A DNA stretch of 64,000 nt from an uncultured Myxococcales bacterium (GCA_964571275.1 CAZNCQ010000006.1:4770-68769), one strand, 5' to 3'; positions 6,250 to 15,982 are shown, counted from the stretch's first letter. Program-made: numbers and translations. Notes: a model not told the origin generated them from the letters alone.

Positions 6250-6595
6250 GGGTATCTCCTCTGGTTGATCGGAATGTCTGGTCGTCCGGAACGGACACGG
6301 AATCAAACTCTGCGGGGTCTGTTTCAGAAACCATCGCGGGCGGCGCCTCGCGCCGATTGAAAAGGCGTCGATAAGAGATCGCCTTGTGCCGCGACAAACG
6401 TTACAGAGCGTCCGCTCGAGTTCGCGATGCGTCCGTGCGCATCCGACCATCGATCTGCGCCCGGTCGTTCGTCGTCGCCCAACAACACCCCTCCGAAAAG
6501 CGCCCCCCCGGGTCGCGCCGCGAGAGTATACACGCTTCCGGCGAAGGGGTCGTCGTCATGAACCGTCGAGGCGAGGAGATGCGCCCATGTCCGGA

Positions 6596-9103
6596 CTACA
6601 AGCGGGACCATCGCGACGGGACGAGCATGCGCCACCCGACGGCCAGGACGGCGCCCGCGAAGGGGATCAGCCAGGAGAGCGGACGGAGAGGCACGATGCT
6701 CATCAGCGCCGCCGCGGCCGGCGTGTACATCATGATCGGGAGGCTGATCGCGGCCGCGCCCCACACGATCCAGAAGCGCGGCGAGCGGGGCAGGATCGCG
6801 CTCGCACGTTCTGCCGAGGCGGCGCGCTCGGCGAGGACGAGGATCTGGTAACCGATGATGAGGGTCGCGAGAGCGACGGCGCGGGCGTGGTCGGTCCCAG
6901 ACCGCATATTCCACCAGAACACGGCGAACACGGCCGCCGACAGCAAGAGGCCGGATAACGTCGATCGCAGCACGGCTGCTCTCGGCAACATGGGCGCGCG
7001 CGGATTCCGGGGCGGCCGGCGCATGAGGTCGCCCGGCGCAGGATCACCCTGGAACAGCAGGGCGGAAACCGGGTGAACAATCAGCTCGAGCCAGATCAGG
7101 TGCAGCGGCATCAGCAGGAGGGGCAGGCCGACAATCGGAGGCATCAGCGCCAGCAGCACGATCGGGATGTGGAACGCGATCAGGTACAGGAACGCGCGCT
7201 GGATATCGAGGAAGATCTTCCGGCCGGCGCTGACCGCAGCGACGATCGAGGCGAAGTTGTCATCGAGCAGGACCAGGTCGGCCGCTGCCCGGGCGACGTC
7301 CGTCCCGCGCTGGCCCATGCTCACGCCGACGTCGGCTTGCCTGAGGGCCGGCGCATCGTTGATGCCGTCGCCCGTCATTGCGACGATCTCACCTTCAGCC
7401 TGCAGCGCCTCCACGATCATGTGCTTCTGCGCCGGCGAGATGCGGCAGAGGATGCTGGCGTCGGCGATGAGGCGTCGGCGCAGGCCGGCCGGCGCGGCCG
7501 CGAGCTGTTCGCCGCTCACGATCGCGTCGTCACGATGAATGATGCCCGCGCTCTCGGTGATCGCATGAGCGGTGAGGGCATGATCGCCGGTGACGACCTT
7601 GATTCGAACGCCGGCCGCCTGGCACTCGCGGACCGCGCCCGGCACCTCGGGACGCATCGGGTCCCGAAAGCCGAGTAGCCCGACCACCGACAGGTTTCGC
7701 TCGTCGTCCCCTCGCGTGATGCCCGTTGGGTTCGGGTCGACGCGCTCCGCGACGGCGAGCACGCGGATGCCCTCGGACGCGAGCCGCGCGTGGAGTTGCT
7801 CGATCGCGGTCCGCTCGGCAACCGCTACGTCCGCGTGCTCGAGGATTCCTTCGAGCGCGCCTTTGGCGACCACCCGGATCGTCGGGCCCCCGCTCGCCGG
7901 CGACCAGACGTGCGACATGTGCTTGCCGATGGGATCGAAATCGTGGTCCCGGACGAGACGCCAGTTCTCGATGAGCCGCTCGACGTCCATGCCTTGACGC
8001 GAGGCACGCGTCTCGATGGCCCGCTCCATGGGATCGCTCGGAGAAACCTCCGACGCGAGCACCGCCGCTGCCAGAAGCTCGCGCTCGGTCGTGTGGCCGA
8101 ACGGGACCACCTGGTCCAACACGAACTGCCCCTTCGTGAGGGTCCCGGTCTTGTCGGTGCAGATGACGGTCGTCGAGCCCAGCGTCTCCACGCTGGCGAG
8201 GCGCCGCACCAGCACGCCCTGCTTCGTCAAGCGCCAGGCACCCACGCTGAGGAACAGCGTGAACACGAGCGGGAATTCTTCCGGGGCGGCCGACATCGCG
8301 ATGCTGATCCCGCCGAGCAGGGATTGCCCCCAGCCGAGGCCGCGCAGCAGCCCGAGGCCAACCACCGCCGCGGCGACGACGGCGGCGATGACCGCGAGCT
8401 TCTTCACGAGCTGGCCGACGCGCCGTTGAAGCGGCGTGAGCGTCGTATCCGACGCCGCCACGAGGCGCGCGATCTCCCCGAACCGCGTCGCTCGCCCGGT
8501 CACGACGATCTCACCCTCGCCGTGGCCCGCCAGCACCGTCGATCCGGCGAAGAATCGTCCGTCGGCCGGAGCTCGGTCGCCAGCCACCGTCAACTCGACG
8601 GTTTGCTTGCCCTGAGGCTCGGACTCGCCCGTCAGCGACGATTCGTCGATGGCGAGGTTCGCTGCCGACCGGACGACACCGTCCGCGTGAATGAACTCTC
8701 CTTCGGAGAGGACCAGGAGGTCGCCTGGCACGAGCTCCGCAGTGTCGATCGTCGTCTCGCAACCGTCCCGGATCACCCGCGCGCGCGGCGCCACACTGCG
8801 AGCCAGCCTTTTGAGCGCCGACCGCGAGCGCGCTTCGAGGAACACATCGACGCCGATCACCGGGACGAGCGCGCCCAACATCACGATCGCGTCTCGCGCC
8901 TCGCCGAGCAACCTGTAGACTCCGGCCGCGGCGACGAGCATGATCGCCATGGGGTCGAGGAGGAGCGTGGCCGCATCCTTCAGCCAGGCCGCGCGCTCTC
9001 GGCTGACCAGCCTGTTTGGCCCGTGCTCGAGCAAGCGAGCGCGCGCTTCGTCCGTGGTCAGCCCACGGCTCCGCGCCGCCGCCGCCGGTTCGTTGATGGC
9101 CAT
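6596..9103 (-). CDS. cation-transporting P-type (E1-E2) ATPase
   Basis: Motifs TGES, phosphorylation site ICTDKTGTLT, KGA, VTGDH and MTGDGINDAPAL, plus about 10 TM segments. Start chosen at MAINEP (AGGAAG 8 nt upstream); the ORF stays open to 9178. Confidence 0.9.
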   Translation of the reverse strand: MAINEPAAAARSRGLTTDEARARLLEHGPNRLVSRERAAWLKDAATLLLDPMAIMLVAAAGVYRLLGEARDAIVMLGALVPVIGVDVFLEARSRSALKRLARSVAPRARVIRDGCETTIDTAELVPGDLLVLSEGEFIHADGVVRSAANLAIDESSLTGESEPQGKQTVELTVAGDRAPADGRFFAGSTVLAGHGEGEIVVTGRATRFGEIARLVAASDTTLTPLQRRVGQLVKKLAVIAAVVAAAVVGLGLLRGLGWGQSLLGGISIAMSAAPEEFPLVFTLFLSVGAWRLTKQGVLVRRLASVETLGSTTVICTDKTGTLTKGQFVLDQVVPFGHTTERELLAAAVLASEVSPSDPMERAIETRASRQGMDVERLIENWRLVRDHDFDPIGKHMSHVWSPASGGPTIRVVAKGALEGILEHADVAVAERTAIEQLHARLASEGIRVLAVAERVDPNPTGITRGDDERNLSVVGLLGFRDPMRPEVPGAVRECQAAGVRIKVVTGDHALTAHAITESAGIIHRDDAIVSGEQLAAAPAGLRRRLIADASILCRISPAQKHMIVEALQAEGEIVAMTGDGINDAPALRQADVGVSMGQRGTDVARAAADLVLLDDNFASIVAAVSAGRKIFLDIQRAFLYLIAFHIPIVLLALMPPIVGLPLLLMPLHLIWLELIVHPVSALLFQGDPAPGDLMRRPPRNPRAPMLPRAAVLRSTLSGLLLSAAVFAVFWWNMRSGTDHARAVALATLIIGYQILVLAERAASAERASAILPRSPRFWIVWGAAAISLPIMMYTPAAAALMSIVPLRPLSWLIPFAGAVLAVGWRMLVPSRWSRL

Positions 9104-12338: not shown

Positions 12339-12992
12339 ATGATCGAGGCGAAGCTCCTTGTTGGTAGGTTCTTGCAGATCACCACCGCGCCCACGAGGCC
12401 CATGCGCGGCGTGCCTCCCATCTTTGACATCGTCGTATGTCCTCCGTTGACGATCCAGGAGTCGACCCGGTTTGCGGGTCCCCTCGGCGGTCACTTCGGC
12501 CAAAAGGCGAGCGCCGTGGTTCCGGGCGCAAACCCAAACCCAGGCAAGATTCACCGCAACCTGAAATGGTTGCCGTATTACGAGGGTGATATTTCGGCAA
12601 CGACCCAGACCTGCGACGTCCTCACCGGCCCCATGTCTGGCTGCCCACTGGTTCGTTATCTACATGCGGGTCAAATCCACGTCGGACACATAGGCACCGT
12701 CCTCGGCCAGGTTGCCGTGAACGCCGCTGTGACGGGTCTTTGGAATGCTTTCGCCCTGGCAAATCCGGGCAGCGTTCTCGGAGGGTTCAATCCGTTTGGT
12801 GCCGGCGTTCCCTTGCCTCCGGCGGCCATTGGACAGGACAGTGTCGCCCGGATCTGGGGCCTCATCACCACGGCCGGAGGGTTCTTCTCGGTCCAGGTCT
12901 ACCAGCAGCTCAATCAGGCCAACTACTACCGGGTGGCGGCCGTCCACGCGGTGCCGTCGATGACGTTGGCCCAGCTTCAGGCTCTTCACTAG
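12339..12992 (+). CDS. hypothetical protein with Cys/His enzyme-like motif (low-GC3 orphan)
   Basis: This is the only plausible part of the chimeric 10452..12992 ORF. 217 aa from ATG 12339 (alternative start 12402). It has many A/T-ending codons (ggt, cct, tat, gat, att, caa, ata, aat). Motif TGPMSGCPLVRYLHAGQIHVGHIGT. Its stop overlaps the stop of the convergent gene (CTAG at 12989-12992). Confidence 0.55.
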   Translation: MIEAKLLVGRFLQITTAPTRPMRGVPPIFDIVVCPPLTIQESTRFAGPLGGHFGQKASAVVPGANPNPGKIHRNLKWLPYYEGDISATTQTCDVLTGPMSGCPLVRYLHAGQIHVGHIGTVLGQVAVNAAVTGLWNAFALANPGSVLGGFNPFGAGVPLPPAAIGQDSVARIWGLITTAGGFFSVQVYQQLNQANYYRVAAVHAVPSMTLAQLQALH

Positions 12993-13780
12993 CGTCGCGC
13001 CGTGGATCGCGGTCGTTGGGCGACGTCCAGGACCCGCTCGGCGACCAGCACCTGCAACGTCGCCCGCTCGTGTCCGGCGGTGCGCAGCGCCGCGACACAG
13101 ACCGGTGTCGCGCACGTCGCCCAGATCTGAACCTCGCCGGCCTCGGCCTCGCGCAGGACGCCGGAGATGGCGGGCGCGAGCAGCACTTCGATCTCCCCTT
13201 CCGCGTCGGGCACCAGTCGCGCCGCCGTCACGTCGTCGGCGGAGCCTGCTCCCGCGTTCATTGCGGCCGCGACGGAGGTCGGCACGCGCAGCAGCGTCGC
13301 ATCCTCACCGCGGACCAAGGCGGTGTCATCGCTGAGCGAGGCCGGATCGGTCGTCTGCGCCGGTGCTCGCTGCGCACGCTGAACGGCTTGCTCGATCCGG
13401 CAGATGACCGCGGTCGTCGAGCCCGCGGGAACCTGCCCGGCAATGTAATCGAGCAGGACGTCCGCCTCGGTGGCGAAGAACGACTCCGTGCCTCCGCCAC
13501 GCTCGACCCAGCCCTTGACCAGGGTCCGCCGTTCGTGCGGCGGCAAGGTTCCGAGGGTCACCCGGGCCGCGTTCAACGTCCGCAGCTCGCACCACGACCG
13601 TTGCACCTCGACCATGAATCGAAATCCGGGGTTGCCCGACAAGCGATGGAAGAACGCGGCTTCCCGCGCGGACAGGGCGGGGGCGGACTCGTCCGACGGG
13701 CGTGCCTCGAGATCCTCCAGCGCCGGAATGCGCCGTTCGCGAACCGCCGTTCCGAGGAGCCTCTGAAACCGGCTCAGCAT
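12989..13780 (-). CDS. MNIO partner protein (MbnC/TglI/DUF2063-type position), function inferred from context
   Basis: 263 aa. Its ATG overlaps the stop of the upstream DUF692 gene (ATGCTGA at 13780-13774). The N-terminal helical region (…AAFFHRLSGNPGFRFMVEVQRSWCELRTLNAARVTLGTLPP…) is loosely reminiscent of DUF2063-type partners. The assignment rests mainly on position. Confidence 0.6.
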   Translation of the reverse strand: MLSRFQRLLGTAVRERRIPALEDLEARPSDESAPALSAREAAFFHRLSGNPGFRFMVEVQRSWCELRTLNAARVTLGTLPPHERRTLVKGWVERGGGTESFFATEADVLLDYIAGQVPAGSTTAVICRIEQAVQRAQRAPAQTTDPASLSDDTALVRGEDATLLRVPTSVAAAMNAGAGSADDVTAARLVPDAEGEIEVLLAPAISGVLREAEAGEVQIWATCATPVCVAALRTAGHERATLQVLVAERVLDVAQRPRSTARR

Positions 13781-14736
13781 TCGGCGGTTCCGCGCGCAAC
13801 GATCACGTCGGCTCCCGATCGGCGTCGATACCGGTGCCAGATCTCCCGCGCGCGTTCGAGCTCCCGGCCGATCAGCTTCGGCCCCAGGCGGGGAGCCGCT
13901 TCGTCGAGCACCTCGAACACCACGCCCGCGACGTTCGGTGCTCGGGGCAACACGTCTTCCAGCAGTCTCCAGACCGGCTCAGGAACGCCGGCGTTATGGC
14001 CGTCCATGTAGAACCCATCCCGCCAGGAGCCCCCGGCCACGTGAATCTCCAGCACGCGTTCGAGCCGCACACCCTGGAGAAGACTCGCGACGTCGATGCC
14101 GAAGTTGACCGCATTGCAATACAGGTTGTGCAAGTCCAGCAGCTGCCAGCAGCGGCCCCGTTCGACGATCGCGTTCATGAGGCCGATCTCCCCCTGGATC
14201 TCGTCGTCGAATGGAAGATCGAACAGGTAGTGCGCGGGGTTCTCGAGCAGGAAAGGGACGCCGTACCGATCGCAAAGCCCCGCCGCCCGCGGCGCCACCA
14301 GGTCGACGGCCTCGCGCGTGCTCGGCAGCGGCAGCGGAACACCGACGGACACGAAGTCCCGCGTCGAGGCCCCCGCCGGGCAGGCAGGCGGGACGGTTTG
14401 AAAGCCAAGGTGCTCGCTGTGCCATTGAAATGGCCACATCTTCCAGAACCGATCGAGCATGTCGATGTAAGCGTCGTTCCAGCCTTCGGCGGAGCCGATT
14501 GAAAGCTCCACGCCGTGGATCACAATCTGCAAACCGTCGCACGTCTGGCGAGCCCGCTCGACGTGCGACGGGATCAGATCCAACGCTCTTTGTCCCCCTA
14601 CCCGACGCTCGCGGCACAGCGACTCCGGCGTGACCTCGACGAAGTCGATCAATCCGGAGCGATAGATCTCCGGTGGAAGGTCAGCGATGTACGGGAAGCC
14701 GACGCCGCTGATGGAGATGGAGGACGCGTTCACCAT
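13774..14736 (-). CDS. DUF692 / multinuclear non-heme iron oxidase (MNIO; MbnB/TglH/HvfB/BufB family)
   Basis: 320 aa from ATG 14736. Family motif series present: FVEVTPES, VIHGVELSIGS, WHSEHLGF, FLLENPAHY, LLDLHNLYCNAVNFG, EIHVAGG...FYMDGHNAGVPEPVWRLLE. Confidence 0.9.
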   Translation of the reverse strand: MVNASSISISGVGFPYIADLPPEIYRSGLIDFVEVTPESLCRERRVGGQRALDLIPSHVERARQTCDGLQIVIHGVELSIGSAEGWNDAYIDMLDRFWKMWPFQWHSEHLGFQTVPPACPAGASTRDFVSVGVPLPLPSTREAVDLVAPRAAGLCDRYGVPFLLENPAHYLFDLPFDDEIQGEIGLMNAIVERGRCWQLLDLHNLYCNAVNFGIDVASLLQGVRLERVLEIHVAGGSWRDGFYMDGHNAGVPEPVWRLLEDVLPRAPNVAGVVFEVLDEAAPRLGPKLIGRELERAREIWHRYRRRSGADVIVARGTAEC

Positions 14737-14737
14737 C

Positions 14738-14953
14738 TCAACGAGCGAGTGCTCCGGTCTCGAACGAGATGACGTTTTCCTTGGACAGGTCCGGCGGCGG
14801 ATCGCCGAGGAATTCGACCTGCAGACGCATGACGCGACCACAGTGCCCACAGCCGGCGATTTTCGTGATCTGCGCAACCACCTGGGTGAGCGCCTCCAAT
14901 GTTTGTCCTTTGGGGTTCAAGGTCGCGGCGGTGAAATGTGCCTGGTTTGACAT
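14738..14953 (-). CDS. candidate RiPP precursor peptide (71 aa, central AGCGHCG motif)
   Basis: ATG 14953 with GGAGG 4 nt upstream. The stop TGA lies 1 nt before the MNIO ATG (TGAgATG). Sequence: MSNQAHFTAATLNPKGQTLEALTQVVAQITKIAGCGHCGRVMRLQVEFLGDPPPDLSKENVISFETGALAR. No signal peptide and only two Cys. Confidence 0.6.
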   Translation of the reverse strand: MSNQAHFTAATLNPKGQTLEALTQVVAQITKIAGCGHCGRVMRLQVEFLGDPPPDLSKENVISFETGALAR

Positions 14954-15055
14954 GGGTCCTCCATTCGTTGACGATTGATTCCGCTTGAAACGGCAGAACG
15001 TTCACGATGACAAACGGCCTCAAGACCCATTCTTCCCTGGTCGCGAGCGGTCGTT

Positions 15056-15982
15056 GTGCGTCTGACCAGCCGCGAACGGCGTTCTGGCTTGCGTCTGAGC
15101 CGCGACGCAAAGGCGCTGCAGGACTTGTTTCACGAATCGTCCTGGGCGCGCGCATTTCTGCGTGCGGCCGTTGGGCTCACGCCGCCTCCCACAGCGACGC
15201 TTTTCCATGTGCCTGGCGCCGAGGCTTACTTCACGCGCCCTGAAACGCGAACCCTGTCCCGCGCGGCACGACGGCGGTTGCGCAAACGGCCGATTGCTCC
15301 TGACTTTTGGTCCCACGCACACGGATCATGTCTTGTTTACGCGCGGGTGCTGTCATTGCTGGAGCCGGAACGGAACGCTCCCCTCCCGGCGCGCATCCTG
15401 GACTTTGGTTGTGGAGCGGGCGCCCAACTTCGGGCGCTCGCGCGCAACCGGGCTGTGAAGGACGCGTGCGGCGTTGAGGTATCACCTCTGTTTCAGAAGC
15501 TTTACGATCAGTGGTTCGAGCGGATCCGCGAGGTCCCTCCTGTTTGGCGCGCCGGCCGTTGCCGGGTTGTCGGTGGTCGGTTCCCTGCAGATCCCGTCGT
15601 TGTGCGCGCTATCGAGGGTCCGTTCGATCTGGCCATCGCGAAGAACGTGCTCAAGCGCGGGTGCCTGCGCCCGGGCCGCGGACTGCAGCCCCACACCGCG
15701 CTCGGCATGTCGAGCGCCGCCTTTCTGCGCGCGATACGCGGCTCGTTGCGCCCCGGTGGACAATTCGCCGTCTATAACCTCTATCCCACGTCGACGACCA
15801 GAACACCCTGGGCCTGGCGAGGGCCACCCTTCGCCCGTCGAACGTGGAGCAGGGCCGGATTCGAACTGCTTCACTACGAGGTCGACGACTCGGTGGCGGC
15901 GCGCGCCATCGCACGTGCGCTTCGCTGGCCCAACGCCATTGGAACGTCGGCGGCGTTCACCCTCGCCCGCAGGAGCGACTGA
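15056..15982 (+). CDS. class I SAM-dependent methyltransferase
   Basis: Motif I ILDFGCGAGAQ, post-I DACGVEVS, and motif IV/V-like FDLAIAKNVL...LRPGGQFAV. GTG start at 15056 is uncertain. The gene is divergent from the MNIO operon. Confidence 0.75.
   Translation: MRLTSRERRSGLRLSRDAKALQDLFHESSWARAFLRAAVGLTPPPTATLFHVPGAEAYFTRPETRTLSRAARRRLRKRPIAPDFWSHAHGSCLVYARVLSLLEPERNAPLPARILDFGCGAGAQLRALARNRAVKDACGVEVSPLFQKLYDQWFERIREVPPVWRAGRCRVVGGRFPADPVVVRAIEGPFDLAIAKNVLKRGCLRPGRGLQPHTALGMSSAAFLRAIRGSLRPGGQFAVYNLYPTSTTRTPWAWRGPPFARRTWSRAGFELLHYEVDDSVAARAIARALRWPNAIGTSAAFTLARRSD

Follow-up and report, generated by a model that had tools for sequence, protein, structure and literature searches.

A conserved three-gene MNIO cassette in an uncultured Myxococcales bacterium: a computationally catalogued family with a probable Cys-Gly protein substrate and undescribed chemistry

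The 64,000-nucleotide stretch of DNA analysed here, called the window throughout (uncultured Myxococcales bacterium, GCA_964571275.1, CAZNCQ010000006.1:4770-68769), carries on its minus strand a compact three-gene operon built around an iron oxidase of the MNIO (DUF692) family. The locus adds a member to a family known from computational cataloguing, whose chemistry, product and function are undescribed. The reading that we hold to be somewhat better than an even bet is that this is a self-contained, translationally coupled operon of the group named MNIO cluster #2 by Antoine et al. 2025, which encodes a small substrate protein, the MNIO and a TglI-like partner protein, and which acts by the mechanism proposed below. 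The features concerned, counted from the first letter of the window, are as follows (ORF, open reading frame; dN/dS, ratio of nonsynonymous to synonymous substitution rates).

14958..14962, minus strand: Shine-Dalgarno sequence GGAGG, read from the sequence, 4 nt 5' of the ATG of the 71-aa ORF
14738..14953, minus strand: 71-aa small protein, probable MNIO substrate, adjamnio-2-like (ORF and independent gene call, dN/dS, relatives)
13774..14736, minus strand: 320-aa MNIO/DUF692 iron oxidase (Pfam PF05114, alignment to TglH and 3BWW)
12989..13780, minus strand: 263-aa partner, PME-type 2, TglI-like by predicted fold (AlphaFold2 model and Foldseek; kept after the MNIO in 18 loci)
14834..14854, minus strand: codons G34-C35-G-H-C38-G39-R40 (family alignments; C38 = 14842-14840, G39 = 14839-14837)

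An earlier note on this DNA had described three tightly packed minus-strand ORFs of 71, 320 and 263 aa, and both positions and junctions were found as it gave them when re-read from the sequence. The stop codon TGA of the 71-aa ORF (14740-14738) is separated by one base from the ATG of the 320-aa ORF at 14736 (TGAgATG), and the stop of the MNIO gene overlaps the start of the 263-aa ORF (ATGCTGA, 13780-13774). The same 71-, 320- and 263-aa genes are called by an independent gene caller on four metagenome contigs of identical sequence, and comparison with a sister lineage (87% peptide identity) yields dN/dS values of 0.18 for the peptide, 0.19 for the MNIO and 0.33 for the partner; because of these independent calls and ratios the three genes are taken as real and constrained, i.e. 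all three are under purifying selection. No second copy of any of them occurs within the window, and scans for promoters and terminators returned nothing useful.

The 320-aa protein is, by its sequence, clearly an MNIO/DUF692 enzyme with every iron ligand conserved. The motif series by which the earlier note had recognized it is present in full in the ORF (VIHGVELSIGS, WHSEHLGF, FLLENPAHY, LLDLHNLYCNAVNFG, EIHVAGG and YMDGHNAGVPEPVW), and a profile search agrees with that assignment, Pfam PF05114 (MbnB_TglH_ChrH) matching at 150.4 bits (cut-off 25; E 7.2e-44) over profile positions 11-260 of 263. None of the four NCBIfam MNIO equivalog cut-offs is reached (score/cut-off in bits: BufB 117.8/310, HvfB 105.6/360, ApyH 82/400, ChrH 77/600). 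A single-sequence search of solved structures finds TglH (8hci/8hi7; E 3.6e-27), through the C-terminal half, and the HvfB-like 3BWW (E 5e-14), and a 12-sequence MNIO profile finds TglH at 2.9e-34, 3BWW at 2.6e-31 and, weakly, MbnB at 4.7e-5. Over the N-terminal half 3BWW gives the better alignment, and a short GGSW…D-x-H loop is common to TglH and the window enzyme. The iron ligands of TglH are H71, H107, E151, D184, N187, H216, D229, H231 and E258 (PMC10880893); the proposed ligands E165, D201, N204, H232, D245, H247 and E275 align to published TglH ligands, H74 and H109 were placed through the HG and S(D/E)HL motifs of 3BWW, and all nine proposed positions are invariant in 12 orthologues. 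TglH also has an essential Asn73 that is present only in TglH orthologues (PMC10880893); at the corresponding position here, which is the second one following the first His ligand, the window clade has an invariant Val (Val76).

Assignment of the 263-aa protein needed structure prediction because sequence searches came back empty: neither the window partner nor 15 orthologues match any Pfam or NCBIfam family, with no DUF2063 match at E <= 10, and a profile of the partner family finds only chance matches among PDB sequences (Tm-1, E 0.18). The AlphaFold2 model of the partner, built on a 47-sequence alignment (mean predicted local distance difference test score, pLDDT, 86.5; predicted template modelling score, pTM, 0.79), shows a helical N-terminal domain (residues ~1-138) followed by a C-terminal α/β domain (~154-253) resembling the recognition element (RRE) of RiPPs, peptides that are made by the ribosome and then modified post-translationally. 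Compared by Foldseek with the whole PDB this model has two significant matches only, TglI (8hi7_A; E 5.2e-5, TM 0.59 over 276 columns) and NGO1945 (3dee; E 6.9e-4, TM 0.52/0.66), which are the two structurally known non-MbnC partners of MNIOs; MbnC itself (7dz9_C) is not matched (E 1.7, probability 0.10). The predicted fold thus agrees with the earlier proposal that a non-catalytic partner fills this slot, and as modelled the protein corresponds to what Antoine et al. 2025 (PMC12452194) call a "PME-type 2" partner.

The 71-aa protein begins with MSNQAHFTAATLNPKGQ, and as read from the sequence this N-terminus has no hydrophobic stretch and no signal-peptide features; the protein contains two Cys residues and has no Pfam or NCBIfam family. 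Relatives number 6 by single-sequence search and 78 by profile search, and HMMER over 1.84 billion representatives collects 112 peptide clusters at 50% identity, nearly all of 57-110 aa; those with a checkable source are all environmental sequences or entries labelled "hypothetical protein" in metagenome-assembled genomes (MAGs). The family motif is G-C-x-x-C-G-(R/L). One subfamily has two Cys (G-C-x-x-C-G-R … G-D-P-x-P-D), and in the other (M-A-C … A-I-E-C-G-I-M) the first Cys of the pair is lost, so that in an alignment of 75 sequences Cys38 and Gly39 alone are invariant; for this reason Cys38 is the likely target of modification. The "CGHC" by which the earlier note had labelled the peptide does not hold across the family, in which the middle residues vary and only the second Cys and the next Gly are invariant, and it is a detail of the lineage. 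A redox motif of the protein disulfide isomerase "CGHC" type was ruled out, since there is no constraint on the pair of residues between the Cys and one subfamily does without the first Cys, and matches of the peptide to Sir2/NAD-deacetylases (E 0.049 and 0.1) are below threshold and reflect the CxxCG knuckle only. MNIOs paired with the one-Cys subfamily have H-S-V-S-L at the first His ligand versus H-G-V-E-L, a difference that hints at co-variation between enzyme and substrate.

The three genes travel together. The comparison set consisted of 22 genome loci with MNIO orthologues (48-63% identity to the window enzyme), and in nearly all of these the small ORF lies directly upstream of the MNIO gene, the full trio being present in at least 17; this answers in the affirmative the question raised by the earlier note, whether the small ORF is kept next to orthologous MNIO genes. 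The partner is conserved after the MNIO in 18 loci and the tight gene junctions are likewise conserved. The hosts are MAGs of Bryobacteraceae, Blastocatellia, Pyrinomonadaceae, Terriglobia, Xanthobacteraceae, Sphingomonadaceae, Caulobacteraceae, beta-proteobacteria and Chthonomonadaceae, so that the cassette spans several phyla including Acidobacteriota and Pseudomonadota. When all ORFs of the 22 loci were clustered against each other only the three genes recurred, together with shadow ORFs in other frames; none of the genes flanking the cassette in the window recurs in the other loci, and further metagenome loci hold the same trio amid unrelated housekeeping genes, e.g. hflX/hfq, parAB and dnaA/dnaN. 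No protease, exporter or metal-resistance gene lies consistently beside the cassette, and among Pfam-annotated genes within ±10 kb of it in the window none of the accessory genes of methanobactin, bufferin or pearlin loci was found, as the earlier note had stated for the adjoining genes. At one metagenome locus (L034:2764-5824, ENA ERZ25039470 contig_84657) a second, divergent MNIO cluster was observed beside the cassette, comprising a 46-aa ORF, a 151-aa ORF, an unusually long 500-aa MNIO (PF05114) and a 259-aa ORF.

Antoine et al. 2025 (Microb Genom; PMC12452194) grouped MNIOs by sequence similarity network, and introduced for cluster #2 the terms "adjamnio-2" (upstream ORFs) and "PME-type 2" (partners); the adjamnio-2 ORFs lack a signal peptide, contain Cys and are paired with PME-type 2 partners, and the representatives are from cultured bacteria, Hahella sp. 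KA22 (WP_127967850/851/852) and Cellvibrio sp. KY-GH-1. The link from the window to this cluster passes through one locus, L037, where the peptide MBL9107278.1 (P0224) belongs, if distantly, to the family of the window peptide (HMMER E 1.8e-5; hhalign probability 97%, E 1e-10). The next gene there encodes an MNIO that is 52% identical to the window enzyme over 282 aa, above the ~40% identity that serves as the network threshold for cluster membership, and is followed by a gene for a 222-aa protein without Pfam family, 29% identical to the window partner. MBL9107279.1 is listed under Cluster_2 (sheets Fig1B and Fig5A) and MBL9107280.1 among the proteins encoded after MNIO genes in the supplementary tables of the catalogue (PMC12452194), and to judge by consecutive accession numbering the former would be the L037 MNIO and the latter its partner. 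Membership in adjamnio-2 at the level of the peptide is probable from the matches to the L037 peptide; the adjamnio-1, -2 and -7 sequences are published as images, and adjamnio-7 is another CxxC family to which the window peptide might belong. The trio of Blastocatellia UBA11741 (HBB89494-6) and the entries MBA27043xx do not appear in the accessible tables, which may list representative nodes only.

The anatomy given in the earlier note was thus right, and its claim of an undescribed RiPP system was overstated, as specialists had already flagged the group. The part of the claim that stands is that no experimentally characterized MNIO pathway is matched; the part that does not is novelty of the family, since a related enzyme is already in published cluster #2. 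The proviso attached to the claim, namely that peptide and enzyme clade might already belong to a published family, was found to apply in a weak form, by way of a 52%-identical MNIO encoded beside a distant relative of the peptide. The catalogue is computer-derived, and gives no chemistry, target residue or function for cluster #2 (PMC12452194).

Support for the small protein as substrate comes from divergent relatives of the locus. Two rare distant relatives of the window peptide, P0228 and P0218 (210-237 aa), begin with a signal sequence, which in P0228 is twin-arginine-like, and contain in tandem two copies of a module of the form helix–GCxxCG–strand–GPxPDP; the P0228 gene (L035:383-1810, ENA ERZ1758171) is followed immediately by an MNIO 40% identical to the window enzyme. 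In an alphaproteobacterial MAG (L016:2051-8727, CAVYWO010000011.1) an MNIO orthologue (56% identity) and partner are present with no adjamnio-like peptide, and the slot upstream of the MNIO is occupied by an unrelated peptide of 58 aa, whose leader is of the double-glycine type (…EIAGG) and whose core reads VCCTCG (C-C-T-C-G). The neighbours there are an HlyD protein and a C39-peptidase ABC exporter, with a 2-oxoglutarate-Fe(II) oxygenase after the enzyme pair, and the L016 locus has by its gene content the character of a classical secreted RiPP cluster. Because tandem-module relatives stand beside an MNIO, and because a leader-core peptide fills the same position at L016, the slot upstream of this MNIO clade is read as a substrate slot, with Cys-Gly as the common element.

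The mechanism is built by analogy with MbnBC, TglHI and HvfBC; what is shown is the identity of the genes, the assignment of folds, the conservation of ligands, the co-occurrence and the invariance of Cys-Gly, and the binding mode, target residue, chemistry, localisation and function are inferred. The helical N-terminal domain of the partner would dock on the MNIO barrel, and its C-terminal RRE-like domain would bind the 71-aa protein at its conserved N-terminal strand and helix (~residues 8-33). The Cys38 thiolate would then ligate the site 1 iron (H74, H109, E165), and site 2 would activate O2, leading to abstraction of hydrogen from the Cys β-carbon. The most likely outcome would be a sulfur heterocycle formed by four-electron oxidation, either a 5-thiooxazole or an oxazolone-thioamide, with a β-carbon excision of the TglH type the less likely outcome. 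By analogy a sulfur heterocycle would probably be formed at Cys38, and is favoured over excision because this Cys occupies an internal position with Gly invariably next to it, the Cys-Gly dyad being the preference of the 5-thiooxazole-forming FonB, and because the TglH-specific Asn is absent. The product would probably remain in the cytoplasm as a small protein, modified but uncleaved, and might serve as a ligand of a soft metal (Cu). As no protease or exporter is linked, an uncleaved cytoplasmic product is probably the simplest reading; a metal-binding role is only a guess, because no metal-homeostasis genes recur beside the cassette.

A number of points weigh against this account. The gene family is known from computation, and for every member chemistry and function come by analogy. 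The closest solved enzyme is TglH, through the C-terminal half, and the closest partner fold is that of TglI, which makes TglH-like or new chemistry possible; DUF2063, the defining signature of partners in the 5-thiooxazole (captophorin) systems, is missing from the window partner, and the enzyme scores far under the BufB and HvfB cut-offs. The general base of MbnB, Asp240/242, could not be located by sequence in the window enzyme. Even with no protease or exporter linked to the cassette the product could leave the cytoplasm, and in the loci compared no recurring metal-homeostasis genes were found beside the cassette. The peptide alone is modelled by AlphaFold2 at low confidence (mean pLDDT 69.5), with one confident helix (residues 19-32); such a fold would fit folding on binding, but is no evidence for it.

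The most serious rival keeps the architecture and changes the chemistry: the enzyme would carry out a TglH-like β-carbon excision that leaves an internal 2-mercaptoglycine, or an undescribed reaction, at Cys38 or at the two CxxC cysteines together. Among solved structures TglH matches best by sequence (E 3.6e-27 single, 2.9e-34 profile) and shares the GGSW…D-x-H loop, TglI is the best structural match of the partner, all NCBIfam equivalog cut-offs are missed, and small MNIO clusters have been a source of new chemistries. However, TglH acts on a C-terminal Cys added by a PEARL enzyme, no gene for which lies within ±10 kb, and the Cys is internal here; the TglH-specific catalytic Asn73 is replaced by an invariant Val in the window clade, and the N-terminal half of the enzyme is closer to the HvfB-like 3BWW. 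We therefore rate this rival as distinctly less likely than formation of a heterocycle, though a real contender. A bolder version to which a similar minor share of belief is given envisages a reaction not yet described, neither heterocycle formation nor C-terminal excision, on the single internal Cys-Gly of a folded, uncleaved cytoplasmic protein of ~70 residues, giving an intracellular protein-borne cofactor or metal site in place of a natural product for secretion; related clades would use the same module in an exported tandem form, or would set the same clade of enzymes to work on another, leader-bearing exported precursor.

Two further rivals concern the small protein itself. It could be an accessory subunit (a metallochaperone, regulator or scaffold), the MNIO–partner pair acting on an unlinked peptide or protein; its whole 60-residue body is conserved, beyond a core, there is no recognizable leader/core boundary, protease or exporter, and CxxCG resembles a zinc knuckle, which would account for the sub-threshold match to the Sir2 zinc module (E 0.049). 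An accessory role fits poorly with the loss of the first knuckle Cys in a whole subfamily that retains Cys-Gly, with the variable copy number seen in tandem two-module exported forms beside an MNIO, with the classical leader-core Cys peptide in the same slot at L016, and with the precursor-MNIO-partner gene order that is the rule in known MNIO systems, and is accordingly judged improbable. That the small ORF arose by chance, or that the operon is a decaying remnant, is a good deal more improbable still: beyond its small size and its lack of a Pfam family nothing speaks for it, and against it stand the dN/dS of 0.18, the 112 clusters of relatives at 50% identity, an upstream position kept across phyla, and a good Shine-Dalgarno sequence together with intact iron ligands in the adjacent enzyme. 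The conservation data effectively refute it, and an operon of substrate protein, MNIO and TglI-like partner remains the preferred reading.

Of the genes around the cassette one may be connected with it, divergently transcribed upstream:

15056..15982, plus strand: class-I methyltransferase, divergent from the operon (weak Pfam Methyltransf_23/12/11 matches)

This gene still adjoins the cassette in the sister lineage (L027; 77% identity), where the other flanking genes differ, and is absent at all other loci; whether it belongs to the system is uncertain, but it may act as a tailoring enzyme specific to this lineage. A faint NCBIfam match of the methyltransferase to the RiPP methyltransferase ApyS (E 0.02) covers the S-adenosylmethionine motif only. 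On the other side a convergent 196-aa ORF (12402-12992, plus strand), for which no family is known in Pfam or NCBIfam, shares 4 nt with the 3' end of the partner gene; it is called independently on four contigs, and the sister lineage does not have it downstream of the cassette. Farther downstream, about 5.6 kb from the cassette, in the 6280-8790 region of the window (equivalent to L023:15853-18360), lies a gene for an 835-aa P-type cation ATPase of the Cation_ATPase_N/C type, with no heavy-metal domain annotated, which is not conserved beside the cassette elsewhere. GC content around the locus is ~62-71%, and Rfam and tRNA scans of the whole 64-kb window detected no tRNA, tmRNA or Rfam family at gathering score.

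Unusual peptide chemistry is being found at a growing pace among MNIO enzymes, and most new reactions have come from small, unexplored clusters such as the present one. The present locus is a clean and tractable candidate for new or boundary-defining MNIO chemistry. A minimal cassette of three genes, with one invariant target residue and no protease or exporter, should be easily reconstituted in E. coli, and through cluster #2 two cultured bacteria, Hahella sp. KA22 and Cellvibrio sp. KY-GH-1, come into view as hosts for genetic work. Since a TglH/TglI-like enzyme pair is here combined with an internal Cys-Gly of the thiooxazole type, the product would show which features of the enzyme steer the outcome of the MNIO reaction; if it proves to be a modified cytoplasmic protein, MNIO chemistry would extend beyond secreted metallophores.

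Among the characterized pathways, there is none of the three compared (pearlin, captophorin, methanobactin) from which the window locus does not depart in one or more defining features. In methanobactin biosynthesis (MbnABC) an MNIO and partner act, as is proposed here, on internal Cys residues of a ribosomal peptide without signal peptide. However, MbnB is a weak match to the window enzyme (profile E 4.7e-5), the partner is not MbnC-like, the TonB receptor, MATE exporter and MbnH/P are absent within ±10 kb, and MbnA is short, unlike the 71-aa window peptide, which is conserved throughout. The TglHI pair of the pearlin system (3-thiaglutamate, Pseudomonas syringae) supplies the closest solved enzyme by sequence and the closest partner by fold, with the same set of iron ligands and a precursor that also lacks a signal peptide. 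In that system, unlike at the window locus, the Cys is C-terminal and added post-translationally by the PEARL ligase TglB, a gene that the window lacks within ±10 kb and that is not conserved in related loci; moreover the catalytic Asn73 corresponds to Val76 in the window enzyme, and the window precursor is unrelated to TglA.

The captophorins (bufferins, oxazolin/HvfA, fontiphorin), in which MNIO–PME1 pairs form 5-thiooxazoles, share with the window the precursor-MNIO-partner order, Cys as likely target with Cys-Gly as the favoured dyad, protein-like substrates and a minimal cassette without protease. They differ in that PME1 carries DUF2063, whereas the window partner has no DUF2063 match and resembles 3DEE in fold only; their precursors have a Sec signal, DUF2282, Lys-Cys/Cys-Lys motifs or EGKCG repeats, none of which is found in the window peptide with its G-C-x-x-C-G-R. 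Neither DoxX nor sigma-factor genes lie near the window cassette, and its MNIO falls under the BufB (117.8/310 bits) and HvfB (105.6/360) cut-offs. The nearest kin is cluster #2. Its hosts include cultured bacteria, unlike the window clade, which consists of uncultured soil and bog lineages, and at its L037 member the peptide match is distant and the partners are 29% identical; yet the same order of three genes is found in both, each with an upstream Cys-containing small ORF without signal peptide, and in both the partner shows no DUF2063 signature and is TglI/NGO1945-like in its fold.

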